The notes under the pieces were generated by a model. It made no database searches, was not told the origin of the DNA, and was given only the letters and a program-made list of their open reading frames with translations. This document shows positions 5,860 to 46,995 of a stretch of 64,000 nt of DNA, piece by piece (position 1 is the stretch's first letter; every line of letters begins with the position of its first letter). Made by a program: the position numbers and the translations under genes. Origin of the DNA: Planctomycetota bacterium (GTDB taxonomy: Bacteria > Planctomycetota > JBFWNO01); assembly GCA_050251015.1 (NCBI GenBank), contig JBFWNO010000001.1, positions 15,860-79,859 on the forward strand, written 5' to 3'.

Positions 5860-7548
5860 ATGGAACCCATGCCCATCTTTGCCATCGTGGCCGACAGTCC
5901 CCTGGGCCTGCACCGCCAGGCTGTCGCCGGGAATGAATTTCCCCTCCTCAGGCAGGGTCTGGAGCTGTCCCCCCTGAGAATCCTACGGCTCCTGAAGGCG
6001 GCCTGCCTGAAGGCGGGCAGGCCAGCCCGGATGATCCTGCCCCTGGCAAGGGGACTCGACAAAATCGCGCCCGAGCTGGGACCCAGGGATCTTTTCCAGT
6101 ATCTCGGCTCACCCAGCCACTCCCCGACGCTCCAGGCCGTGGCCGCCCTGGAGGCCCGCTGGCTCGAGGAACTGCGCCGCGGTGTGGCCTCTCTGGATCC
6201 TGTCTCGACCGGTGAGTCTTCCGGGTTGCTGGAACTGGACACCGATGAGGCCTTCAAGTCTTGGTCCGCCACGACCATTGCCGATGAGGATGTCGTGGTC
6301 CTGGCCCGCGGATCTCAGTCGCTTCTGAACACAGTTCTGAGCGCCGGACTGCTTGCCGAGGTCCTGCGCCGGGATGCCCTCCTCAAGGATCATGGAGTGG
6401 CCGGCATGGCCGGCCATGCCATGGGACTCACTCCCCTCGTGCTCTCGGGGCGGGCCTGGAAGGCTGCGCTGGCAACATGGAATCCCGCCGACCCGCGCAG
6501 CGGCCCGGCACCGGTGGCCGAACTTTCTCTGTCGCCCCTGATCGAACAGATGGCAACGCAGGGAATCGATTTGCACTGGAGATCCGCCTACCACAGCTTC
6601 CAGGGGCTCTTTCTCACGCGCTATCCGGAGGCCGATTCAATGGAGCCCGGCCAGATCCTCGCCGCCCTACGGTCCCATGCAGCACAGATCGACCTCGGAT
6701 CGGGCCGGCGCATTCCCTTCATCTTCAATGAAAGGGTCGCGTACTGGGGAGACGGCTCGAACGTCCACGCCCCCAAAGGTGATTTTCGCTCGCTCGTGGG
6801 CCGCATGGCCCAGGAAGAACAGCTCCTCAGGCAAACGACGGGCATGGTCTTCAAGGGGCAAAAAATCCTCGAGGTGGGTTGCGGACCCGGGGAGAGCGCG
6901 CTGGGCATGATGGCTCTCGGCGCCGCCCGCGTGACAGCCACGGACTTTGCCGTGGAGACGGGACTCTTCACCCACCGGCGGATGCTGGCCCTGTGGCCCG
7001 AAAACCTGCCCAAACCGGGCGCCCTTCATTTCACCGACGCGGCAGCCGAGCATCTGCCTTTCCCCGATGCCTCCTTTGACCTGATCTACAGCACCCAGGT
7101 GCTCGAGCATGTCCGGGATGTGCGATCCTCGATGCACGAGATCCTCAGAGTCCTACGCAAGGGAGGGGCGCTCCTCCTGCACTACAACCCCTATTTCCAC
7201 CTGAGGGGAGGGCACGGAGTCTGTACCACCGATATCCCCTGGGGTCATCTCAGATTGACTCCCGAGGAAATGGAGGAGTTTGTCTCGAAGGTGGAGTTTC
7301 CCGAAAGGGGCCGGGCTACCCGTGAGGCCCTCGCCTCCTATTTCAACCCCGAGCGATTGACCTTGAGCTCTTTCGAAGCCATCCTTGCCACTCTGCCCGC
7401 CACAATCCTGCACTACACCACGCAGGTGGAACCCAGGCACCAGGAGTTCCTCCCCCAGCTTCTGCCCGAGATCCTCGCCCGGCACTCCGGGGCCACCCAC
7501 CGCGACCTTATCACCCGTGCAGTGACCGTGGTGCTCAGGAAACAGTAG
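5860..7548 (+). CDS. Two-domain protein: unknown ~350-aa N-terminal domain plus C-terminal class I SAM-dependent methyltransferase
   Basis: C-terminal motif ILEVGCGPGESAL ... FDLIYSTQVLEHV ... LRKGGALLL. Start placed at the second Met (MEPMPIF), because the first Met would overlap the divergent upstream gene. Confidence 0.6.
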   Translation: MEPMPIFAIVADSPLGLHRQAVAGNEFPLLRQGLELSPLRILRLLKAACLKAGRPARMILPLARGLDKIAPELGPRDLFQYLGSPSHSPTLQAVAALEARWLEELRRGVASLDPVSTGESSGLLELDTDEAFKSWSATTIADEDVVVLARGSQSLLNTVLSAGLLAEVLRRDALLKDHGVAGMAGHAMGLTPLVLSGRAWKAALATWNPADPRSGPAPVAELSLSPLIEQMATQGIDLHWRSAYHSFQGLFLTRYPEADSMEPGQILAALRSHAAQIDLGSGRRIPFIFNERVAYWGDGSNVHAPKGDFRSLVGRMAQEEQLLRQTTGMVFKGQKILEVGCGPGESALGMMALGAARVTATDFAVETGLFTHRRMLALWPENLPKPGALHFTDAAAEHLPFPDASFDLIYSTQVLEHVRDVRSSMHEILRVLRKGGALLLHYNPYFHLRGGHGVCTTDIPWGHLRLTPEEMEEFVSKVEFPERGRATREALASYFNPERLTLSSFEAILATLPATILHYTTQVEPRHQEFLPQLLPEILARHSGATHRDLITRAVTVVLRKQ

Positions 7549-17000: not shown

Positions 17001-19273
17001 CTCACGGCCCCGGACACGCCAATGGACTTCACAATGCGACCCGAGAGGTCGGAACTGACGTTCCCGTACTTGTCCACGGCGTCGACAGTGACTTGAAAGG
17101 AAACCTGCTCGGTCTGGTCGGCTGTGGTGCCGGACACATAACCGATTTTGGTTCCGAGATAGGTGGTTTGCCCGGGGGTGATCTTTGTGCCTTGGACCCT
17201 CACCACAAGGCGGCTGGCCGCCGAGGTCACCGTGTGGCTCATGGAAAGGGAGCTGGCGCCACCGCCCGTAAAGGTGATGGTGTGAGTGCCGGCCACATAC
17301 TGCCTCAGGCGCTTGAAATAGAAGTAGCCGCCTTGGGCCGTGGCTGTGACGTTGGAACTCCAGTTGGCACTGCTGGCCGTGAGCACCGTGGAATTGTCAT
17401 TGAGATACGTGTTGCCGGCCGTGTCTGTGAGGCGCAAGGTGATATCAAGACCATGATCGGCGCTGACCGGCGAGGAGGGGAACTTCACCACATCCAAGGT
17501 CACGCCATTTGGGTTGGTGTTGGGGTTGAACGGAACGGTGCGGGAAGGGGCACTCGATGAGGATCGTTCGCCGTTGGTCCTGATACCCACCACCTTGAAC
17601 ACACCGTAGGGTTCAAGGAACGTGAAACCCGTGTAGGTGTGGTAATTGCCATACGAAGCCGTGAAGGGAAAGGTGAAGGTGGGCTGGGTGCTCTCGCCAA
17701 AGTAACGGAACTCGTTGTACTTGGCATAGGTCATATAGGGAATCCCATAAAGGATGGGTTCCTTCTTGTAGATGTAATATTTGTCGGGCACCACGCTGGT
17801 GCCCGGGGCCACATCCCACTCGATCCTCACCGTACCATTTTCGTTATAGACCACGACGTTTTCCGGGGATGGCAAGAGCACATCATTACGGGCCTTATTG
17901 CTCGTGGCCCTTGAAGTCGCAGGACCCCTTAAGATCTCCGGCGAGGGAAGCGAGCGTTTGCCGTTGCTATCCACCGCCACAATCCTGAACGCCCCGTAAT
18001 GGGACCCGAACCAGTTGTTGGTGTGGAAGGCTCCAAAGAACGAATAGTGCTGGTAAGCCGCAAACTCTGAATAGGCCGTGAAGCCACCCAAAGATGAATA
18101 GTTGTTGTAAACGGTGTAAGCGAGGTCGGAGGTTAAACCCGCCAAGCGCCAACCCGAATACATCGTCCAGGCTTCCTGCAACCCAGGGCTGTAGTAGTTG
18201 CCGTAGGCGAGGTAGGAAAGGCCGTCAAAATACCTGTCGTAAGGGGCGTTGTTCATGTAGACGACATAGTTCAGGTAATCGTTGTAATAAGCGCTGTTGG
18301 AGTGCGAGTATTGGTTGAATGAAGAATAGTTCATGTAGGCGGAATATTTTTCCCAGATTTCATAGGTGACCCCGGACTTGAGGGCCCCCTTCCATTCAAT
18401 GCCGAACTTTCCTGGCCAATTACCCTCATACCTCACGCGAGGAGTCCCGGGAGCTTCTGGGGCCTCTGTCGAATTAACGAAATAAAAGTCACCGAGATCC
18501 ACCTTGCGCACCACTCCGCCGATGGTGGCCGAGGCTTCCAGGGCCAACTTTTCACGCTTGTTGTAGGTGAGGTTCATCGTGGAAATCCCCGCGACCACCA
18601 CGGCCGACCCTCCCGTCAGCGATCCTGTGCTGGAAAGCGGACTGATCGAAACATCAGTGCTGTTGTCGGCCGTGTTGATGTTGCCGTACACGTCGGTCAC
18701 GGCCACCTTCAGCTGAAAGCTGCCGTCCTTCGACACGACGCCCCCCCTGCGACTGAGGCTGGTGAGGGTGGTGAAGGGGCCGGGAGCCAGCATGGTGTCG
18801 GCCGTCACGGTATCGATGGAGTCGACCAGCATGCCGTTGAAGGAGCGTGTCTGGATCTTGTACGTACCAGTGGGTCCCTTGCGCGGGGAGTTCTTCACCC
18901 CGGACAGCACCAGGGTCACGCTCGTGTTTGCAACCGTGTCCGAACCGTTACCTGTGCGCTTGATTTGGAGGATGTTGGCCATGACATCCGCCGTGACCAC
19001 AAAACTTCCGTCGATGTTGTGGGCCGCCGAGAAGGTCGCCTGGGAGATATCGTAGTCGTATGGAAAATGCACCGTGGCGTCCGCTGTGGCTGACAGGACA
19101 GAGGCGGTGTCAAAGCTCACGCAGACCTTGGTGGTGGCTCCCACATTCTTGCTGACAGGCTCAACGTTGGCGTTGCTCAGGTTACCGGCAGAAAGTGACG
19201 CTTGAAAGAGAACGAAGGCCAGTAGGAAAATCCAAGCCATCCCAAATCGTTGATGCATCAAGACCCCCGTCAT
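14072..19273 (-). CDS. Giant (1733 aa) secreted cell-surface protein with PKD repeats, FN3/Ig-like segments, a Tyr/Ser/Asn-rich low-complexity region, and a C-terminal hydrophobic helix + RRR tail (sorting-signal-like)
   Basis: N-terminal signal peptide (MAWIFLLAFVLFQASLSA). Repeated WDFN/GDG PKD-type motifs (VWDFNTADS, WQWDFNADGIFD, WQWDFNGDGLFD). Very high S/T/N/Y content. C-terminus LLATSLLLILAAWVVGRRRSA. Start codon overlaps the upstream gene's stop (TGATG). Confidence 0.8.
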   Translation of the reverse strand: MTGVLMHQRFGMAWIFLLAFVLFQASLSAGNLSNANVEPVSKNVGATTKVCVSFDTASVLSATADATVHFPYDYDISQATFSAAHNIDGSFVVTADVMANILQIKRTGNGSDTVANTSVTLVLSGVKNSPRKGPTGTYKIQTRSFNGMLVDSIDTVTADTMLAPGPFTTLTSLSRRGGVVSKDGSFQLKVAVTDVYGNINTADNSTDVSISPLSSTGSLTGGSAVVVAGISTMNLTYNKREKLALEASATIGGVVRKVDLGDFYFVNSTEAPEAPGTPRVRYEGNWPGKFGIEWKGALKSGVTYEIWEKYSAYMNYSSFNQYSHSNSAYYNDYLNYVVYMNNAPYDRYFDGLSYLAYGNYYSPGLQEAWTMYSGWRLAGLTSDLAYTVYNNYSSLGGFTAYSEFAAYQHYSFFGAFHTNNWFGSHYGAFRIVAVDSNGKRSLPSPEILRGPATSRATSNKARNDVLLPSPENVVVYNENGTVRIEWDVAPGTSVVPDKYYIYKKEPILYGIPYMTYAKYNEFRYFGESTQPTFTFPFTASYGNYHTYTGFTFLEPYGVFKVVGIRTNGERSSSSAPSRTVPFNPNTNPNGVTLDVVKFPSSPVSADHGLDITLRLTDTAGNTYLNDNSTVLTASSANWSSNVTATAQGGYFYFKRLRQYVAGTHTITFTGGGASSLSMSHTVTSAASRLVVRVQGTKITPGQTTYLGTKIGYVSGTTADQTEQVSFQVTVDAVDKYGNVSSDLSGRIVKSIGVSGAVSFPASMGARNLTLTNGTATTTLTCVTSAAPFAKRFIVTADLTGFPGFVSHPSVYFFVHKGIRVKRVEFSDLDSNGSTDSVVVSFDSPINDSTITTGPPTRGFFISHDNAGAIKPSGWHSYGTANDTRIELLFQNPQDSGTVTKSFTYYQKFGKVKGLNGAYVINTLTADNTLIDRRNNQASVVNSSTYGLASRGGTLHAVTLDFSGTIPNEYLTASRWIVVAANGVVLNVTGTGRDMANNKLTVSLDGTLGNTGTPHVGFESSDPNLVINGLVAMGGGTTASPLINITWQSLTDPSIQKYAVFRSTSLNGTYSLLTTTTASVTQDSTIASGTTYYYYLRGLMTGSRVTKPSQKVSASVLGAVPTVSCSATPTSGTAPLTVLFSGTASDTDGQIVQYVWDFNTADSLPSNYTSGTSASTSYTYQESGSYTARLTVMDNSGNSASATVVITVGSPSSGPTANATYNTLGGPAPLAVTFADTSTAGSSAIALWQWDFNADGIFDTSSTVTGNASTIYRLPNRTYNGVKLKVTDLNGRTSTKTFTVTVGAGTNAPQVTLDGAAATNSSGTLISSSGTLPYCVTFSATTYDKAPGKIIRWQWDFNGDGLFDRITTFDRGLRSVTHCYTVPGTYAPLVRVRDNSGLEAEDSFVITIASPTNALPQILEPVTGDRVGGDRLLLRAVATPGSIVSTLLFEYSTDASSWTQTGSTHTGVKPEYRGELSLSTFANGSPIYIRARCTDTQSGSGTSTVVKVFKVAANQAQVYETLSGTKATKEVSLDATLAQEVTTTTGAGMEIPLGAISQDAINLGGLRCRIEDIGQGSTYAISTGLPSDTTNLGYTVGFSLKLSNGSQVQLPSLPVILRMPYPDVNNDGLVDGTSIREENLVVYYYDTGLSSWRPVVGVAVDTAANVVEITTAHLTDFGMFATVVSGAIGGSAGGPGAAASGLCLISEVTAPWSLLATSLLLILAAWVVGRRRSA

Positions 19274-21753
19274 CAGGGTATTGATTTTAGGAGCTTCAGC
19301 GCCTCCTGCCTATTCATTTCATCCAATGGAAGCTCCAGGGCCCTTTGCAGATCCTCTCGGGCGGCCTCGGCATCTCCCATTTTTTCAAGATAAAAGCGAC
19401 CCCTGGCCAGTAGGATTTTTCCGTCACCCACTCGATCCACAAGAATCCTGTACTGGTCCAAGGCCTCCAGAAGTCCGATTTCCGATCCGCCGTTCCAGAG
19501 CGCCAGCAGTTCAGCCGACCTCAACCTCACCATTTTTTCATCACCACCCGACTCCACCGCCTGTTGGATGGCCCCCGCCACCTCACTCCAGCAACCCGAC
19601 TCCATCAAGAGCCGCAGTTCCTGATCCAGAAATCGGGGTTCCCGGGGATAGCTCTGCCTCCCGCGCCTGAACACGGGTAAAGCTTTTTCGGGATCTCCCA
19701 ATTGCACCAGACAATTGCCCTTGGCCATGAGGATCCTCAAGAGCAAATCGGGTCGGTCCCTCCAACGCTCCACATGAGCATCCAGTGCCTCTAGGGCCTG
19801 CCCATAGGTTGTGAGGGACTCAGGAATGTTGCCCAGGCGATACTGGGTCAGACCCAGACGCGCCAGGGTCTCGGGATCCGGAGACACCAACGCTCGATCC
19901 GACAACATCACCTGGGCATGGATCAGATCGGAAAGACTGGCCGTCTCCCCGAGCTCCGCCAGCAACTCCGGTTCCCGCTCGCGCCACCAGCCCTGACGCT
20001 TGTAGGCCTCCGTGAGTCTGGAGCGCCTGTCTTCCCTGTTGTCGATGTCCGACCAGTCCAGCATGGCCCACATTTCGTCGAGCAGGGGGCGGGAATCGGG
20101 AATCACCGCGAAGGCCCTGTCGAGCTGGGCCAGGCGTGAGGCTTGGTCGCCGCGCTCGGCAGCCAACCGGGCCAGCAGGATGTGCACCCTGTCGTTGTAG
20201 GGAGTGAGTTCCTCCAAGCGAATCAGAACAGATTCGCCCCTGTCTTTCTCACCGGCCTGCAGGTAGGACACCGCCAGGGTCCAGAGGATGGCGGGGTCAT
20301 GCGGCTGAAGCTCCCTCGCTCTTTCCAGTCCCTCGGCCACCTTTCGATGCCTGTCCATGGCATCCCATGGTGAAGTGGGGGGAGTTTGCAGGGGGATATG
20401 AGCTTCCTTCTGCAATCGAGAGGCTCGCCAAGGGGCGAGAACCGTAGGGATGAGGAAAATGGAAATGATCATCGCGATGATGGGTGCAGCGTGCTGCGCC
20501 CCTACACCATGATGTGTTTTCACTGACTGTCTCTGTGTAGGGGCGTAGCATGCTACGCCCTCTTTCCATGCCAACACTCCCAGGGCCCAGAAGGCCCAGG
20601 CTGCGGGGATGCATTTGTAGAGAGGGTAACTCACCAATGAGTGCACGGCTGTCACCACCAGGGTTGCCGCCACCACTCGCACATCCCCTTGGGCCGTCCA
20701 CATTCTCTTCCACACCACAAACGCCACCCCCAGGGCCGCAAGCCCGCCCACCAAGCCGGTCTCCACCAGCCATTGCAGGGGATCGGAATGGGCGTAGCGG
20801 ACGTACTCCGTACGGGTGCGATCCGTCTTCTGGTAGATCACGGGGTAGTTGCCCGGACCCGAACCCAGGATGGGATGCTCCCGGAAAGCCAGAAGACTGT
20901 GGGTGTAGAGTTCGTGGCGCCCACTGTCCTTGGTGAGAGCCTTCAAGTCGCTCTTGGTTTTCAACGGACTCAGGTTTTTCTCACCCGTGGCATCTCCCAT
21001 CACAAGAAGGGCTCCAAGGGAAATTCCCAGCACCATGGCGACCAAGGGCAGGGCCCTGAGCTTCACATCCGCCACGACCCCGGAGCGACCCCACAGGAGG
21101 AACGCCAGCCCCGCCAGTGTGCCAAGCCAGGCTCCCCGTGAGAGTGTGAGCACCAAAGCAATGGAGGCAAGCGACATAAGCAAGCACCGCAACACATCTC
21201 CTCCTCTAGGAGAGTGGGGGGCTTCTGATGGCATTCCCACAAATCCCATCAAGATCACAATTGAAAGAAACTGCGCCAGGTCGTTCTGGTGACTGAAGAG
21301 ACCGAGCAATCTGTTCTCTCGCGTGAAAAACTTCCAGCCAAGGTCCTGGTGCTCGGCAAGAACAAGGGCCGCGTTCACTCCCGCTCCCAATAGCGCGAGC
21401 AGCGCGAGGACCCGGAGTCTCCCGGCTGTCCACGAGACCTGCATCGAGGCAAGGGCCACGATCACAAGGCATCCCAGGCGCAGGATCTCCTCCCGGGCCG
21501 CCGGCATGTTGATGGCACCGACCGCAGAAATCACGGTTGCCAATAGCAGGGCCAACAACGACCGGACCAAGGGAGCGTTTACGACCTTCATGAACCCGCC
21601 TCTTGAAGCCAGCCAGGGAAGGAGAAGGAGTGCGCCCACCATGAGGGGAAGATCCTTCACCGGCCCCAAAGGCTCGATGGATGAGGTGTCCCATACAACT
21701 GCTCCAAGACAGAGGATCCCAAGAAGAATCGCGGAACCCAGAGTCTCCATCAT
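19273..21753 (-). CDS. O-antigen ligase (Wzy_C) family membrane protein fused to a C-terminal TPR-repeat domain
   Basis: N-terminal ~450 aa has multiple TM helices and the Wzy_C signature region (LTLSRGAWLGTLAGLAFLL). The C-terminal ~350 aa consists of TPR-like repeats. The ATG at 21753 forms an ATGA overlap with the upstream EamA gene stop. The ORF-track start (GTG 21771) is less likely. Confidence 0.75.
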   Translation of the reverse strand: MMETLGSAILLGILCLGAVVWDTSSIEPLGPVKDLPLMVGALLLLPWLASRGGFMKVVNAPLVRSLLALLLATVISAVGAINMPAAREEILRLGCLVIVALASMQVSWTAGRLRVLALLALLGAGVNAALVLAEHQDLGWKFFTRENRLLGLFSHQNDLAQFLSIVILMGFVGMPSEAPHSPRGGDVLRCLLMSLASIALVLTLSRGAWLGTLAGLAFLLWGRSGVVADVKLRALPLVAMVLGISLGALLVMGDATGEKNLSPLKTKSDLKALTKDSGRHELYTHSLLAFREHPILGSGPGNYPVIYQKTDRTRTEYVRYAHSDPLQWLVETGLVGGLAALGVAFVVWKRMWTAQGDVRVVAATLVVTAVHSLVSYPLYKCIPAAWAFWALGVLAWKEGVACYAPTQRQSVKTHHGVGAQHAAPIIAMIISIFLIPTVLAPWRASRLQKEAHIPLQTPPTSPWDAMDRHRKVAEGLERARELQPHDPAILWTLAVSYLQAGEKDRGESVLIRLEELTPYNDRVHILLARLAAERGDQASRLAQLDRAFAVIPDSRPLLDEMWAMLDWSDIDNREDRRSRLTEAYKRQGWWREREPELLAELGETASLSDLIHAQVMLSDRALVSPDPETLARLGLTQYRLGNIPESLTTYGQALEALDAHVERWRDRPDLLLRILMAKGNCLVQLGDPEKALPVFRRGRQSYPREPRFLDQELRLLMESGCWSEVAGAIQQAVESGGDEKMVRLRSAELLALWNGGSEIGLLEALDQYRILVDRVGDGKILLARGRFYLEKMGDAEAAREDLQRALELPLDEMNRQEALKLLKSIP

Positions 21754-22661
21754 GGCCGGGTGAACAGCCACATGCCGGCTCCCAACACCCCACCCCCCAA
21801 GAGCTGCAGCGCCGTGGGTTCTTCGCCGATGAACACATAGGCCAACACCATGGTCGCAAAGGGCGTCGCAATCTCCCAGGTGGCCACCTCATTGGCCTGC
21901 AATCGTTCAAGGGCCAGGTAATAGCCCAGGAAACCCACACCCACCAAGCCGCTATAGAGGAGGAGGAAAGGGTGATCATAGACCCAGGTGCCGAACATGA
22001 AGTGGGCCACAGCCACTGCCGCCACCGATGAAATGAGGCCTCTCCAGGCCAGGATCTCGGCCCCCTTCATCCGGTCCATCAACTGCTTGCTGACCACGGC
22101 CCCATAGGCCCACAGCACAGTGGCTCCCATCACCATGAGATCGCCCGTGTTGCCGAATCGCATGGCCCATAGATCCTCGAGGTACCTTGAAGACACAAGC
22201 AGGGCGCTGAGGATCATGAGTCCCGCACCCGCCATCTCACCCTTTTTCATCCGCTCGCCGAGCCGCCAGGCCCCCAGGAGGGCGATGAAGACAATCTGGG
22301 TGTGACCGAGAAAGGTGGCCGTGACCGTGCTGGTACGCCGGAAACCCTCGAACCAAAGGTACAGAGCGGCAAAGCTGGTGGTCAGGGCCACGGCCAGGAT
22401 CCCGGGATAATTTTTGGGAGCCACCTTCATCGTGTGCCCAGGGACCAACAGGCACCACAGTGTTCCGGCCACCGCAAGGCCGATGGCCTCGGCCGACACG
22501 AAATCCTGCGGTCCCACTTTTTCCGTCATGGTTCTGAGCCAGACCACGATCCCCGACCAACAAAGGATCACCATGGCGAGGATCCAAAGACCTTGTCGGC
22601 GTCTGACATTCGTTGAGGATGATGCGTCTGTCATGGCATTCCAATTTTTGCGCGATGGCAC
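21750..22661 (-). CDS. EamA/DMT-family transporter (10 TM)
   Basis: Two EamA-like hydrophobic repeats. 303 aa. Confidence 0.7.
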   Translation of the reverse strand: MPSRKNWNAMTDASSSTNVRRRQGLWILAMVILCWSGIVVWLRTMTEKVGPQDFVSAEAIGLAVAGTLWCLLVPGHTMKVAPKNYPGILAVALTTSFAALYLWFEGFRRTSTVTATFLGHTQIVFIALLGAWRLGERMKKGEMAGAGLMILSALLVSSRYLEDLWAMRFGNTGDLMVMGATVLWAYGAVVSKQLMDRMKGAEILAWRGLISSVAAVAVAHFMFGTWVYDHPFLLLYSGLVGVGFLGYYLALERLQANEVATWEIATPFATMVLAYVFIGEEPTALQLLGGGVLGAGMWLFTRP

Positions 22662-36368: not shown

Positions 36369-36404
36369 CCCCCCCACCCTGACCCTCCCCCCAAGAGGGG
36401 GAGG
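36368..36404. repeat. GC-rich hairpin repeat, copy A (CCCCCCCACCCTGACCCTCCCCCCAAGAGGGGGAGGG)
   Basis: Near-identical copies at 46210-46248 (same orientation) and 45083-45122 (inverted). Lies between the convergent cutA and alkA-like genes. Confidence 0.6.
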
Positions 36405-36412
36405 GAATGGAT

Positions 36413-43967: not shown

Positions 43968-44401
43968 CCCTCGAAGGCCGAGACCGTGGCCCGGAAATCC
44001 TCGGGAACACTGATGGGCTGGTACTGCGCGTCGATGGCGCAGTGGGTGGTGTACCCCAGCGCCACCAGTCTGTTGGTCTTCTTGTGGACAATGCGAAACT
44101 CGAAGGTGAAACTGCGACGCCCCTTCTCGATCGGCGCCATGCGCACGGCCACCGTCAGCACATCATCAAAGCGGGCGGGGCTTTTGAAGTCGACATGGGC
44201 GCTGACAACCACGTTCTCGAACCCCTTGATGGGGCGTATCCCTTCGGAGAGCCCGAGGTTGCGCAGGTAATCCACCCGGCCCACCTCGAGGTAGGTCAGG
44301 AAGTTACCGTGAAAGACAATGCCCATCGCGTCGGTTTCCGGAAGGCGCACGCGGAGCTCAGTGTGAAAGTGGAAGGGGGCCTCAGTAGAAGACGGTGTCA
44401 A
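43958..44401 (-). CDS. Acyl-CoA thioesterase, hotdog fold (YbgC/4HBT-like)
   Basis: 147 aa. Conserved thioesterase N-terminal motif (RVRLPETDAMGIVFHGNFLTYLE). Confidence 0.75.
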   Translation of the reverse strand: MTPSSTEAPFHFHTELRVRLPETDAMGIVFHGNFLTYLEVGRVDYLRNLGLSEGIRPIKGFENVVVSAHVDFKSPARFDDVLTVAVRMAPIEKGRRSFTFEFRIVHKKTNRLVALGYTTHCAIDAQYQPISVPEDFRATVSAFEGWT

Positions 44402-45069
44402 CGGACTCCGTGAGTGTCGAGGTATTGGAGCACCCGGGCTTTTTGGGCGGAATCCAACACCACCTTACCCCCAATCGACTGCCCTTCCAGGGCATGGACA
44501 ACTTCCTCGAGAGTGATGAGAGCCTCAAGCTTCACACCCTTGAGGCGGTGGAGCTCGCTCGCGGCGCTGTCGATGCCCTCCTCGCCGCGTTCCATCCTGT
44601 CCACGGCCACCAGGGCGTAGGAGGGAATAACGTTGAAGTGGTCCTTCAGGATATCGGCCGCTCCCTTGAGACTTATTCCCGATGAAATCACGTCGTCAAC
44701 CAGGATCACCTTCTCACCGGTCTTGGGAGTGCGTCCGACAAAGAGGCCCTTGTCGGCGTGACGCTTGGCCTCCTTTCTGTCGAAGCAGATCCCCGTTGAG
44801 GTCCCGTACAGCTTGTCATAGGCCCCCGCCACCGCCACCGCCAAAGGAATGCCCTTGTAGGCCGGTCCGAAGACGATGTCGCAGCCCCCGAGCTCGCGCA
44901 GTCTCTGGGCAAAGAAACCCCCAAGGGCATTGAGGGCCCGGCCCGAGTCCAGCTTGCCGGTGTTGAAGAAGTGCGGGCTTTGGCGCCCGCTCTTCAAGGT
45001 GAACTCACCGAAGAGGAGCACGCCTTCCTCCACCAGGAACCTTGCGAATAATTTTTTATCGAGGGGCAT
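44398..45069 (-). CDS. pyrE: Orotate phosphoribosyltransferase
   Basis: PRPP-binding motif VILVDDVISSGIS. 223 aa. Confidence 0.9.
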   Translation of the reverse strand: MPLDKKLFARFLVEEGVLLFGEFTLKSGRQSPHFFNTGKLDSGRALNALGGFFAQRLRELGGCDIVFGPAYKGIPLAVAVAGAYDKLYGTSTGICFDRKEAKRHADKGLFVGRTPKTGEKVILVDDVISSGISLKGAADILKDHFNVIPSYALVAVDRMERGEEGIDSAASELHRLKGVKLEALITLEEVVHALEGQSIGGKVVLDSAQKARVLQYLDTHGVR

Positions 45070-45082
45070 GGGCTCTATTTTA

Positions 45083-45122
45083 CCCCCTCCCTCCCCCTCT
45101 TGGGGGGAGGCTAGGTGGGGGG
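45083..45122. repeat. GC-rich hairpin repeat, copy B (inverted orientation relative to copies A and C)
   Basis: CCCCCTCCCTCCCCCTCTTGGGGGGAGGCTAGGTGGGGGG is the reverse complement, with few mismatches, of the 36368 and 46210 elements. Confidence 0.6.
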
Positions 45123-45127
45123 CTTCC

Positions 45128-46202
45128 TACCACCTTAAGAGGGCGCAGCAAGCTGCGCCCCTACACCCTGATTTAATCCATCCGTCATTCCCGCGAAAGC
45201 GGGAATCCATCATGGTCACCCATGCCCAAAGCATTTACGTCCATGAAAGTTACAATTAAAGCCGTGTTCTCATTGCTCACCAACATTCAGCAGCATGTTC
45301 CAGAAGATCAACTGTGCATCGTAAGTAAATATATAAGCGAACATGGCAAACGCATCAATTACTTTTATCGCTATGCCCCTGAATTTGACGGGGATACGGG
45401 ATGGAGGTTCCTGTCCGGATATGAGAATGAAAAATATGCCGAGGACCAGGATAATTTCGAACGCTGCACTCTCAACATCGTCTGCAATTTTGACCCCAAT
45501 GTGATCAACTTCTTAAGCCATCCCGCGGGTACAAAGATTGAGCGCAGCAATAAAACAGGGCGATTTGTAAAAGATCAGTCAGAAGATATCCCTGACATCA
45601 AGATCTATACTCAAGGGGTCTCATTCGACCCTGAAATTCCCATTTCATTTCATGTGCTCCCCGAACGCGAGTTTTGGGCAGTATTCTCAACTTTTGCAAA
45701 AGATCGAGAGGAAACCCTGTGTAGTGACCATGCAAAGGAAGCCTTCAGAGTAGGCATTTTTGAAACTCAGGGCGCCGTTGAGTTTTTCATGCTGGAACTT
45801 GCTTCAGGAAACACCGAACGCTTCTCCGTTGGATATGACTTCAACTATTGCCATCACACCTCCTCTGGCATCTATTCAATTGAAATGGTCGGCCCTGCCT
45901 TGCTCCGCGCCATCATGAAGGCTCATAGCTCTGTGCCTGATGGGAGCAAATGGGCGCATAGTGTTGTCTTTGAGATTGACGATTTGATGGGCGATATGAT
46001 CGTCCAATACAACAATTGCTACATCTTAGATCGCACGCCTTCCATTCTTAGGGATAAGTTGGGTTGCCCGGTATCTTGATGACATCCTTGATGGATTCCC
46101 GCATTCGCGGGAATGCCGAATAAGAAGGGCGCATTGCCATGCGCTCCTACGGAAACCATTATCTGGATGTAGGGGCGCAGCCTGCTGCGCCCTCTTAGGT
46201 GG
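45128..46202 (+). mobile_element. AT-rich ~1.1 kb single-ORF cassette bounded by nested imperfect inverted repeats (MITE/cassette-like); no recognisable transposase
   Basis: Outer ~40-bp terminal inverted repeats at 45128-45168 and 46165-46202. Inner 26-bp palindromic repeats at 45186-45211 and 46090-46115. Internal GC is ~20 points below the flanks. Confidence 0.45.
45222..46079 (+). CDS. Hypothetical protein (285 aa) encoded in low-GC island
   Basis: Only long ORF in the island. Codon usage is AT-rich, unlike all neighbouring genes. No signal peptide or TM helix. No family recognised. Confidence 0.6.
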   Translation: MPKAFTSMKVTIKAVFSLLTNIQQHVPEDQLCIVSKYISEHGKRINYFYRYAPEFDGDTGWRFLSGYENEKYAEDQDNFERCTLNIVCNFDPNVINFLSHPAGTKIERSNKTGRFVKDQSEDIPDIKIYTQGVSFDPEIPISFHVLPEREFWAVFSTFAKDREETLCSDHAKEAFRVGIFETQGAVEFFMLELASGNTERFSVGYDFNYCHHTSSGIYSIEMVGPALLRAIMKAHSSVPDGSKWAHSVVFEIDDLMGDMIVQYNNCYILDRTPSILRDKLGCPVS

Positions 46203-46209
46203 ACAGAAG

Positions 46210-46248
46210 CCCCCCACCCTGCCCTCCCCCCAAGAGGGGGAGGGTGAG
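46210..46248. repeat. GC-rich hairpin repeat, copy C
   Basis: CCCCCCACCCTGCCCTCCCCCCAAGAGGGGGAGGGTGAG is near-identical to copy A. Lies directly downstream of the island ORF. Confidence 0.6.
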
Positions 46249-46995
46249 CTACGCTGACCCTTCGGATGGCCCTGTTCGCATTTGAAGCAGCGCATTCGGA
46301 GCCATCGTCCGGGCCACAGTGAAGGCCACCACCCTGAGGGCCCCGGCCTCCTTGAGCACCCGGGCGCAGGCGTTGAGGGTGGCACCGGTGGTCATCACAT
46401 CGTCGACCAGGGCCACATGCAGGCCTTCCACCCTGCGCACGCAGCGGAACCCTCCGTCCGAGCGGAGCCTTTCCTCGCGGGTCTTCGCCGATTGCTTTTT
46501 TACCCACCAGGGACGGGCCAGTGCGGGTCGGTGGGGAATGCCGGATTGGGAGGCAAGCTCCTGCGCCAGAAGCCGGCTCTGGTTGTGACCCCTCCGGAGG
46601 CGACGGAGCAGGGGGCTGGGCACATCCACCAGCACATCCACGCTCGCCAGACCCTCCTTCAGTGCCAGGGGCAACATCCAGGAAGCCAGCTCCCGCGCCC
46701 CTGTCGCGGCGGGACTGTCTTTGAGCCGGAGGATGGCGACGCGGGCGGCCCCCTCATAACTCACTGCGGAATGAGCCGCATCAAGATGCCAAGCCCTTCC
46801 TTCACAGGCACGGCAGGTCAGGGGCCTCAGGCCCGGGCCCAGCCATTCGGCACAACGCCGGCACCCGTCACCACCAAATTCCCGGAAACTGGATCGGCAC
46901 GAGGGGCAGACCACACCCTCGCACTCCGCACCGCATTGGGCGCAGGGGGAAGCCAGGACGGACTCAAGGATTCGGCGTAGGGCGCTTGAGGCCAA
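46249..46995 (-). CDS. comF: ComF-family phosphoribosyltransferase-domain protein
   Basis: N-terminal 4-Cys zinc ribbon (CAQCG ... CPSC ... CRRC ... CRAC) and C-terminal PRTase motif (VALVDDVMTTGATL). Confidence 0.7.
   Translation of the reverse strand: MASSALRRILESVLASPCAQCGAECEGVVCPSCRSSFREFGGDGCRRCAEWLGPGLRPLTCRACEGRAWHLDAAHSAVSYEGAARVAILRLKDSPAATGARELASWMLPLALKEGLASVDVLVDVPSPLLRRLRRGHNQSRLLAQELASQSGIPHRPALARPWWVKKQSAKTREERLRSDGGFRCVRRVEGLHVALVDDVMTTGATLNACARVLKEAGALRVVAFTVARTMAPNALLQMRTGPSEGSA

Follow-up and report, generated by a model that had tools for sequence, protein, structure and literature searches.

A lineage-specific passenger gene of predicted immunity type lodged in nested REP dimers between comF and pyrE of a Planctomycetota bacterium

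How did a single gene of foreign composition come to lie between comF and pyrE of a Planctomycetota bacterium, wrapped in several layers of inverted hairpins? The locus (positions 45,083 to 46,248) belongs to a 64,000-nt stretch of contig JBFWNO010000001.1 of assembly GCA_050251015.1 (positions 15,860 to 79,859, forward strand), which we call the window. An initial annotation, made from the sequence alone, had seen in it a single-gene island bounded by terminal inverted repeats and had proposed a miniature mobile cassette. The analysis described here leads us to conclude that the block is a real, lineage-specific acquisition lodged in nested dimers of repetitive extragenic palindromic (REP) sequences. 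Its best overall explanation, which we hold with moderate confidence, is a non-autonomous, REP-bracketed passenger gene captured at a REP dimer or hairpin of the host; that the block is mobile as a unit is still an unproven hypothesis. The gene and its two neighbours are as follows.

44398 to 45069, minus strand: pyrE, orotate phosphoribosyltransferase (Pfam Pribosyltran; NCBI MGE4157514.1; relatives 58-91% identical), the conserved flank downstream of the insertion
45222 to 46079, plus strand: cargo open reading frame (ORF) of 285 aa, antisense to comF and pyrE (NCBI MGE4157515.1, annotated as a DUF2185 domain-containing protein)
46249 to 46995, minus strand: ComF-family gene, double zinc ribbon plus phosphoribosyltransferase (Pfam Pribosyltran and DZR_2), the conserved flank upstream of the insertion

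The initial annotation had suggested looking for an empty site between pyrE and comF, and such sites are found. In the protein collection, the PyrE relatives with readable contigs are 91%, 64% and 62% identical to that of the window, and in all three (L082, L083 and L084) comF lies directly next to pyrE: the extra block of ~1.13 kb that separates the genes in the window is missing, and the island is thus not conserved in synteny. The gap between the two genes is 31 nt in L083, and in L084 they overlap. No close relative was found in the PyrE scan of species-representative genomes, where the nearest PyrE is only 46% identical. L082, whose PyrE is the 91% identical one, has the gene order of the window (LpxK, HtrA, a 162-aa gene, comF, pyrE, 4HBT, YqeY), and its comF stop and pyrE start are 44 nt apart. 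These consist of 2 nt, one copy of a hairpin that we call A, and 19 nt, followed by ATG: 'tt CCCTCCCCCTCTTGGGGGGAGGG aaaggtaaaatagtcaccc ATG'. Read on the same comF-to-pyrE strand, and with letters for the hairpin modules listed below, the window instead has the comF stop, A, D', B', B2, C', the antisense ORF, C, B, D, A' and 'agggggtaaaatagagccc ATG'. The comF-proximal A has the orientation and position of the single hairpin in L082, and the pyrE-side A' is an inverted copy. This comparison shows that ~1.13 kb was gained at a pre-existing intergenic G/C hairpin A after the split from the closest sampled relative; parsimony over the three relatives favours a gain in the lineage of the window as the probable direction of change.

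The occupied and empty alleles differ at the end of comF as well. In the window the comF stop TAG lies within a GTAG tetranucleotide (46249-46252), at a distance of 4 nt from hairpin A; comF of L082 ends earlier, at a TGA without GTAG, so that the C terminus of ComF differs between the two alleles.

The composition of the block is that of an intruder only in its central part. GC content is 0.44-0.50 across 45100-46150, compared with 0.60-0.68 on either side and a whole-window mean of 61.6%. The only long ORF in this interval, at 45222-46079, has a GC of 0.455 against 0.618 +/- 0.025 for other 858-nt windows (z = -6.5) and is the lowest-GC stretch of the 64 kb; its GC at third codon positions (GC3) is 0.51, against 0.70-0.83 in ten other genes. 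The sharp drop in GC and the foreign-looking codon usage that had first drawn attention to the locus both stand on these figures. The flanking arms, by contrast with the ORF, are host-like (0.61-0.63), and the foreign composition is confined to the ORF.

The two more distant relatives have the comF-pyrE-4HBT synteny, yet their genomic GC is 0.42-0.46, well below the 0.62 of the window and the 0.63 of L082. GC has thus shifted widely inside one lineage, which also makes low-GC relatives possible donors of the 0.455-GC ORF.

We then consider the repeats around the ORF. The outer arms are 84 nt long and 82% complementary (45089-45172 versus 46161-46244), and no inverted repeat of the window is longer; an inner inverted pair of 36 nt is 89% complementary. 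Such repeat matches arose in 0 of 100 shuffles. When folded as single-stranded DNA (ssDNA), either arm resolves into four distinct hairpins, lettered A, D, B and C from its outer end inward (fold z ~ -5); the right arm carries one more.

45089 to 45111, no strand: hairpin A', inverted copy (22/23 to the reverse complement of 46222-46244); 9-bp stem, loop CAAGA on the comF-to-pyrE strand
45113 to 45135, no strand: hairpin D (GGTGGGGGGCTTCCTACCACC), from the ssDNA fold; 20/25 to the right-arm copy
45140 to 45165, minus strand: module B, GTAG REP; 9-bp G/C stem, GTAG at 45164-45161, tag toward the ORF
45183 to 45210, plus strand: module C, CGTC-1 REP/NTS-like (CGTCATTCCCGCGAAAGCGGGAATCCAT); CGTC tag outward, ends 12 nt before the ATG
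46091 to 46118, minus strand: module C', degenerate CGTC-1 REP with the tag CGGC; 26/28 to C, starts 12 nt after the stop
46126 to 46150, minus strand: module B2, degenerate extra GTAG REP, right arm only; 17/24 to B
46168 to 46193, plus strand: module B', GTAG REP; GTAG at 46169-46172, toward the ORF; 25/26 to the reverse complement of B, a perfect tagged hairpin
46198 to 46218, no strand: hairpin D', right-arm copy, from the ssDNA fold
46222 to 46244, no strand: hairpin A, comF-proximal; identical 23-mer a short way past the comF stop of L082, at 7450-7472

Similarity between the arms is layered. It is high in the modules (A 22/23, D with the A-D linker 20/25, B 25/26, C 26/28), and A, D and B align as one contiguous 84-nt unit, linkers included; in the B-C linker, which carries B2 on the right side, identity is only 14/49. 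B2 and B' form a tail-to-tail dimer with an 18-nt spacer (46126-46193), and C and C' a head-to-head dimer around the ORF. This layered similarity, with an unrelated B-C linker, indicates that the locus consists of two concentric inverted pairs, an inner one that is an NTS dimer and an outer composite of A, D and the GTAG REP with its tags inward. All repeat elements of the initial annotation are confirmed within a few bases of where it had placed them: the ~40-nt inverted repeat (45128-45168 and 46165-46202), which is in fact part of the longer 84-nt arms; the 26-nt palindromes (45186-45211 and 46090-46115, with 1 mismatch); and the GGGGGAGGG hairpins that flank the block in opposite orientation (45089-45111 and 46222-46244). 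In an Rfam scan no family passed its threshold. A weak match to Chlorobi-1 over D' and A (46186-46245, minus strand; 20.4 bits against a gathering threshold of 50, E = 0.019) most probably reflects two G/C hairpins that fit the motif by chance.

Hairpins beside a lone ORF might also suggest an integron-type cassette, or one placed by another site-specific recombinase at an att-like hairpin, and an integron-like insertion had indeed been entertained at first. It would suit an ORF that stands alone, looks promoterless and has flanks able to form hairpins, with no transposase. Integron cassettes, however, carry one attC at the 3' end and stand in same-direction arrays beside intI. The block has mirror-image hairpin sets at both ends rather than a single 3' attC-type site and forms no array; its neighbours are pyrE and comF, with no integrase among them and no tRNA or recombinase gene adjacent; and its hairpins can be classified as REP/NTS families. 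We regard this origin as extremely improbable and reject it.

That classification rests on published definitions. Module B, which consists of GTAG plus GGGGCGCAGC..GCTGCGCCC with a 9-bp stem and occurs at 45164 (minus), 46169 (plus) and 20537 (plus), can be compared with the GTAG REPs of Di Nocera et al. (2013; PMC3733652), defined by a short G/C palindrome with a 6-13 bp stem, a small loop and a terminal GTAG. By this definition it is a GTAG-tagged REP, of the family associated with RAYTs (REP-associated tyrosine transposases). We found exact matches to it in at least 120 metagenome contigs, and in two of these loci (L160 and L152) module B REPs flank RAYT-like ORFs with HUH and Tyr motifs; RAYT genes flanked by REPs are what the REPtron concept describes (PMC3733652). 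The segment around the RAYT-like ORF of L152 (4101-4435) has a GC of 0.41 against 0.55 in its flanks, and at the ORF of L160 (4815-5834) the module B REPs are a four-copy cluster in conserved ~100-nt units.

Module C reads CGTC, ATTCCCGC, GAAA, GCGGGAAT, CCA, that is, an 8-bp AT-initiated stem, a 4-nt loop and a CCA tail. REPs of the CGTC-1 family, which takes in the dRS3 repeats of Neisseria, have an 8-bp stem with AT first, a 4-nt loop, a CGTC tag and a CCA tail and occur mostly as head-to-head dimers (PMC3733652). Chenal et al. (2025; PMC11893778) give a 28-nt consensus for the NTS, CGTCATTCCCGCGMAVGCGGGAATCYRG, and allowed at most one mismatch in their own searches; the left copy (45183-45210) has 1 mismatch to it and the right copy (46091-46118) has 3, which makes the latter a degenerate member only. 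We therefore class module C as a CGTC-1 REP or NTS-like hairpin. The module is spread very widely, with matches in Neisseria, sphingomonads and Azospirillum as well as in at least 120 contigs of viruses or prophages. Elsewhere, C dimers are commonly head-to-head, with 18-56 nt spacers and the same polarity as in the window. The loci selected for C contain six GIY-YIG ORFs, of which every one abuts the hairpin and four are bracketed on both sides; in L224, L248, L270 and L303 a C dimer brackets a GIY-YIG gene of ~100 aa with 6-18 nt on each side. This association is not new here. It was published in 2025 for the Ssn GIY-YIG ssDNA nucleases, whose genes are flanked by NTS-type hairpins and which cut next to these hairpins (Chenal et al., 2025; PMC11893778).

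One viral or prophage contig (L231, 361-680) has an NTS head-to-head dimer tightly around a 78-aa ORF without a Pfam family, with a GC of 0.42 against 0.50 in the flanks. Here, too, a gene that is not a nuclease occupies the enzyme slot of an NTS dimer.

Judged by these matches, the flanking repeats belong to pan-bacterial hairpin families linked to mobile DNA and are not ends specific to a cassette. The link to mobile DNA that had been surmised for them is borne out by their REP/NTS membership. Their description as terminal inverted repeats that mark the cassette ends is not: the modules are generic GTAG and CGTC-1/NTS REPs, and A and B also occur in the window without cargo, at the following places.

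20482 to 20564, no strand: module B tail-to-tail dimer with a 27-nt spacer; one long REPIN-like hairpin, -25.6 kcal/mol, z = -6.2
36371 to 36405, no strand: solo hairpin A with the first ~12 nt of D, between the convergent cutA and HhH-GPD glycosylase genes, 3 nt past the cutA stop

The B dimer lies inside an 832-aa Wzy_C plus TPR gene (ORF 19273-21771, minus strand), where it is read in frame as '...KEGVACYAPTQRQSVKTHHGVGAQHAAPII...'. The product is 100% identical to Logan protein P0271 (L326, SRR27751816), and a fully identical protein from an independent assembly means that the REP dimer within this gene did not arise by misassembly. REPs inside genes were already known (PMC3733652). No Wzy_C plus TPR ortholog without the REP-dimer insert, by which the event might be dated, was found. 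The solo A stands in a typical REP position. Together these copies show that module B is a dispersed REP/REPIN-like family, and hairpin A a dispersed intergenic hairpin, of this genome. In the collections, the A part of the arm occurs at 19 places in one Photobacterium record. A further candidate, the JGI contig L099, had the appearance of a 2-kb unit between B and B' and was rejected as an assembly artefact: it is a near-perfect fold-back with mirrored ORFs. The fold-back is centred between the REP copies, a caution for censuses of inverted REP pairs in metagenomes.

What, then, is the passenger? Residues 32-117 of the product match the Imm33/DUF2185 domain (Pfam PF09951, E = 5e-26, 90.7 bits with a cut-off of 25.4). 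Its GWRF motif is common to the homologs P0002, P0004 and P0005 and includes the conserved Trp that Zhang et al. (2012; PMC3482391) noted in Imm33. The same authors predicted that Imm33 proteins confer immunity against HNH-fold nuclease toxins and reported that the domain is often fused to other immunity domains and is present in polyimmunity loci that lack toxins; the immunity role is that of a Pfam family defined by comparative genomics. The remainder of the protein is much rarer. An exhaustive HMMER search of 1.84 billion representatives returned 740 matches to the cargo protein, among them only a single full-length relative (P0002, 41% identity, E = 5e-51) and one that matches the C-terminal part only (P0058, 143 aa). 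The C-terminal domain (aa ~125-285, window 45594-46076) is found in three clusters among these representatives, with F, LPE, Y-C, IYS and KW as invariant positions. It has no Pfam match and no sequence match in the PDB. An AlphaFold model built on the three-sequence alignment has a pLDDT of 74.5 and is an alpha/beta sandwich, for which no informative or convincing structural neighbours were found; the model of the cargo protein from its single sequence has a pLDDT of 36. PADLOC and NCBIfam gave no match for the ORF and PHROGs non-significant ones only (E 0.07 or worse), and scans for consensus promoters and terminators found such sites no more frequently than in shuffled sequence. With no toxin gene next to it in the window, the cargo is best described as an orphan immunity-type gene, with the function predicted from its domain. 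The initial annotation had called the protein one of unknown function, which still holds for the uncharacterised C-terminal domain and no longer for the N-terminal part, and its guess at an immunity protein agrees with the Imm33 domain.

The full-length relative P0002 establishes that the cargo gene is real. Its gene lies between rhomboid and trpF genes in another high-GC genome (L081, 2025-2858), where it is likewise a low-GC single-gene island: GC is 0.50 for the gene and 0.47-0.54 along the locus against 0.65-0.70 in the flanks, and GC3 is 0.57 against 0.84-0.89 in the neighbours. On the evidence of these two islands, the gene family is DNA that has been acquired repeatedly. The Imm33 homolog of N. 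gonorrhoeae is not flanked by NTS/dRS3.

The hairpins might, on the other hand, be latecomers. If the gene was first inserted by illegitimate recombination, unaided by repeats, and REPs colonised its sides later, or spread there by local inverted duplication or gene conversion, the arms would have been built up in place. REPs do prefer sites within 20 bp of the ends of ORFs and readily form dimers (PMC3733652). The P0002 island without hairpins, the extra B2 in the right arm as a sign of ongoing local REP turnover, and the greater conservation of hairpins than of linkers would all agree with such a history. Against it, four modules are mirrored exactly, in order and orientation, on both sides; the contiguous 84-nt alignment of A, D and B extends through their linkers, which is improbable under independent colonisation; and in a window so poor in REPs, nine hairpins in 300 nt would hardly arise by independent events. 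We consider the build-up unlikely.

Could the arms instead be the termini of a MITE (a miniature transposable element bounded by inverted repeats) or mobile insertion cassette, with ~130-nt arms serving as terminal inverted repeats (TIRs) for a DDE-type transposase encoded elsewhere in the genome that moved the block by cut-and-paste? The long imperfect inverted termini, the lack of an internal transposase, the single passenger and the clean empty site are all as expected of such an element. Its ends, however, are independent pan-bacterial REP modules that are also met, with no cargo, as single copies or short dimers, the similarity of the arms is limited to the hairpins and lost in the B-C linker, and neither a direct target-site duplication nor a second copy of the composite end was found. 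A DDE-type origin is thus improbable, rather more so than the build-up in place.

The last two of these points also weigh against capture of a REP-bracketed passenger, the explanation we prefer, and they are joined by others. The outer 10 nt of the two sides are unrelated (4/10), and the one hairpin A of the empty site has become two inverted copies, not a direct repeat. Neither the window nor L082 nor the scanned collections yielded a second composite arm; the B-C junction had 0 matches in JGI metagenomes, and the D-B junction and hairpin A had 0 in viral contigs. The only copies of module C in the window are the two at the locus, and the window contains no GIY-YIG ORF and no RAYT or Ssn gene. 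With a single further B dimer and a lone A over its 64 kb it is REP-poor and gives no sign of an active REP system in this genome. No toxin gene adjoins the ORF in the window, where the neighbours are housekeeping genes and form no polyimmunity locus. The hairpin modules and inverted repeats are absent from the flanks of the P0002 gene, which means that the gene family needs no such repeats to move and that the hairpins are not obligatory. Finally, the direction of change rests on parsimony, and it would also be conceivable that L082 lost the block precisely when the two repeated halves of hairpin A slipped against each other. Nevertheless, much of the initial proposal of a non-autonomous mobile cassette survives: the block is an insertion, it is foreign, its repeats are linked to mobile DNA and it contains no transposase. 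The parts that would have identified a transposing unit, a target duplication and a second copy of the arms, were not found.

A more prosaic explanation is that the locus is an assembly chimera, in which a low-GC ORF of another organism was falsely joined to the contig through shared NTS/REP hairpins. Hundreds of unrelated contigs contain modules B and C, exactly or nearly so; for the products of the ORF and of pyrE the only record is from the NCBI metagenome-assembled genome (MAG); and fold-back artefacts such as L099 do occur at these repeats. Exact-sequence records for the ORF (with both starts), pyrE, the 4HBT gene and a 148-aa gene were sought, and none is on record. Logan contig L327, an independent assembly of the same organism, agrees with window 52407-46219 at every position (0 mismatches over 6,189 nt), passes through hairpin A and stops 3 nt past it. 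These last 3 nt (CAG), however, fit the occupied and not the empty-site sequence. The exact stretches shared with other contigs are 23-28 nt, below typical final assembly k-mers, and the arms differ by 4-20% per module, as real diverged DNA would and collapsed repeats would not. The P0002 gene, moreover, is a low-GC island in a high-GC contig, and both the project and the assembler behind that contig are unrelated. A chimera is very unlikely on this evidence. The end of L327 at 46219 could reflect low coverage over G/C hairpins, a graph branch between empty and occupied alleles, or breakage induced by the repeats.

If capture of a REP-bracketed passenger is correct, a mechanism can be sketched. 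The locus has the geometry of the ssn and RAYT units: its ORF stands where ssn stands in NTS-ssnA-NTS units and rayT in REPtrons. Most likely the passenger arrived as an NTS-gene-NTS segment, a configuration known in Neisseria (PMC11893778), and was taken up in the middle of a REP dimer or long palindrome of the host; that middle would be the exposed tip when the repeats are folded in ssDNA. Capture may have come about through recombination between hairpin repeats, a possibility that we rate somewhat short of even; less probably, at about one chance in a few, a RAYT or Ssn enzyme acting in trans would have cleaved and joined the DNA. Because A is palindromic, short homology at its halves could give exactly what is seen, an intact hairpin at both ends with the second of them inverted. 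There are precedents both for DNA inserted between the partners of a REP dimer and for composite TIRs or arms, made of a REP and an unrelated stem-loop, that flank RAYT genes (PMC3733652). Once resident, it is probably an orphan immunity gene that counters HNH-fold nuclease toxins from competitors. The flanking hairpins may insulate it from antisense comF-pyrE transcription. In a genome with an Ssn enzyme they may, in addition, make it a target of Ssn-dependent restriction when cells are transformed.

The locus resembles several known systems and coincides with none. As in the NTS-ssnA-NTS units, C and C' fit the NTS consensus, their tags point outward and they lie ~10-12 nt from the gene ends, and the ssn genes of L224, L248, L270 and L303 share this locus layout; unlike them, the bracketed gene is Imm33-type and not ssn, the 64 kb contain neither an ssn gene nor a further NTS, the host is a Planctomycetota MAG rather than Neisseria or an alphaproteobacterium, and the NTS pair is nested in a second layer of REPs (PMC11893778). 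As in REPINs and REPtrons, B is a GTAG G/C hairpin in inverted dimers (27-nt and 18-nt spacers), and its REPs flank RAYT-like genes in metagenome contigs; in contrast to them, the spacer between B and B' is ~1 kb and holds a non-transposase gene, which is atypical, the copy number in the window is very low and no RAYT is present there (PMC3733652). With the dRS3/NIME arrays and minimal mobile elements of Neisseria it shares the CGTC-1 hairpin family, to which dRS3 belongs, and there, too, variable, horizontally exchanged genes stand between conserved flanks, with the repeats proposed as recombination substrates (PMC11893778); here, however, there is a single gene, without a repeat array or DNA uptake sequences. 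Like MITEs and mobile insertion cassettes, it has inverted ends and a passenger gene, lacks a transposase and shows presence/absence polymorphism among relatives, but its ends are mosaics of REP hairpins rather than insertion-sequence ends, and no direct duplication and no other copies were found. Like orphan and polyimmunity genes, the cargo has an Imm33 domain above the Pfam threshold that is fused to a second domain, and no toxin gene; it differs in its undescribed fusion partner, limited to three protein clusters, and in standing alone rather than in an immunity cluster (PMC3482391).

The components of the locus are all known, namely GTAG REPs, REPINs and REPtrons, CGTC-1/dRS3/NTS hairpins with Ssn, and Imm33. 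The novelty lies in the instance: a Planctomycetota host, a defined empty site, a passenger in the enzyme slot and two concentric layers of REPs. REPINs and REPtrons reportedly go back to Bertels and Rainey in 2011. Few bacterial repeats are as abundant, or as poorly understood, as REPs and NTS/dRS3 hairpins, and to our knowledge REP/NTS systems have barely been studied in Planctomycetota. The published view holds REP and NTS elements to be non-autonomous and tied to single-copy RAYT or Ssn genes, or to be modulators of recombination and transformation. A bolder reading of the nested A-D-B-C...C'-B'-D'-A' structure is that it is a cargo-bearing derivative of NTS-ssnA-NTS units or REPtrons that moved as ssDNA, through a nuclease or transposase specific for hairpins and supplied in trans, and inserted at the tip of a further hairpin. 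We think this doubtful; were it true, REP systems would be a vehicle for the horizontal transfer of single genes, beyond their role as genomic residents, and the 78-aa ORF of L231 would be a second example. Taken alone, the locus is a well-documented case of known parts in a tidy arrangement, and it corrects a likely misreading of such repeats as transposon ends. If units of this kind were shown to move, REP biology would be tied to the transfer of gene cassettes and to the spread of orphan immunity genes.

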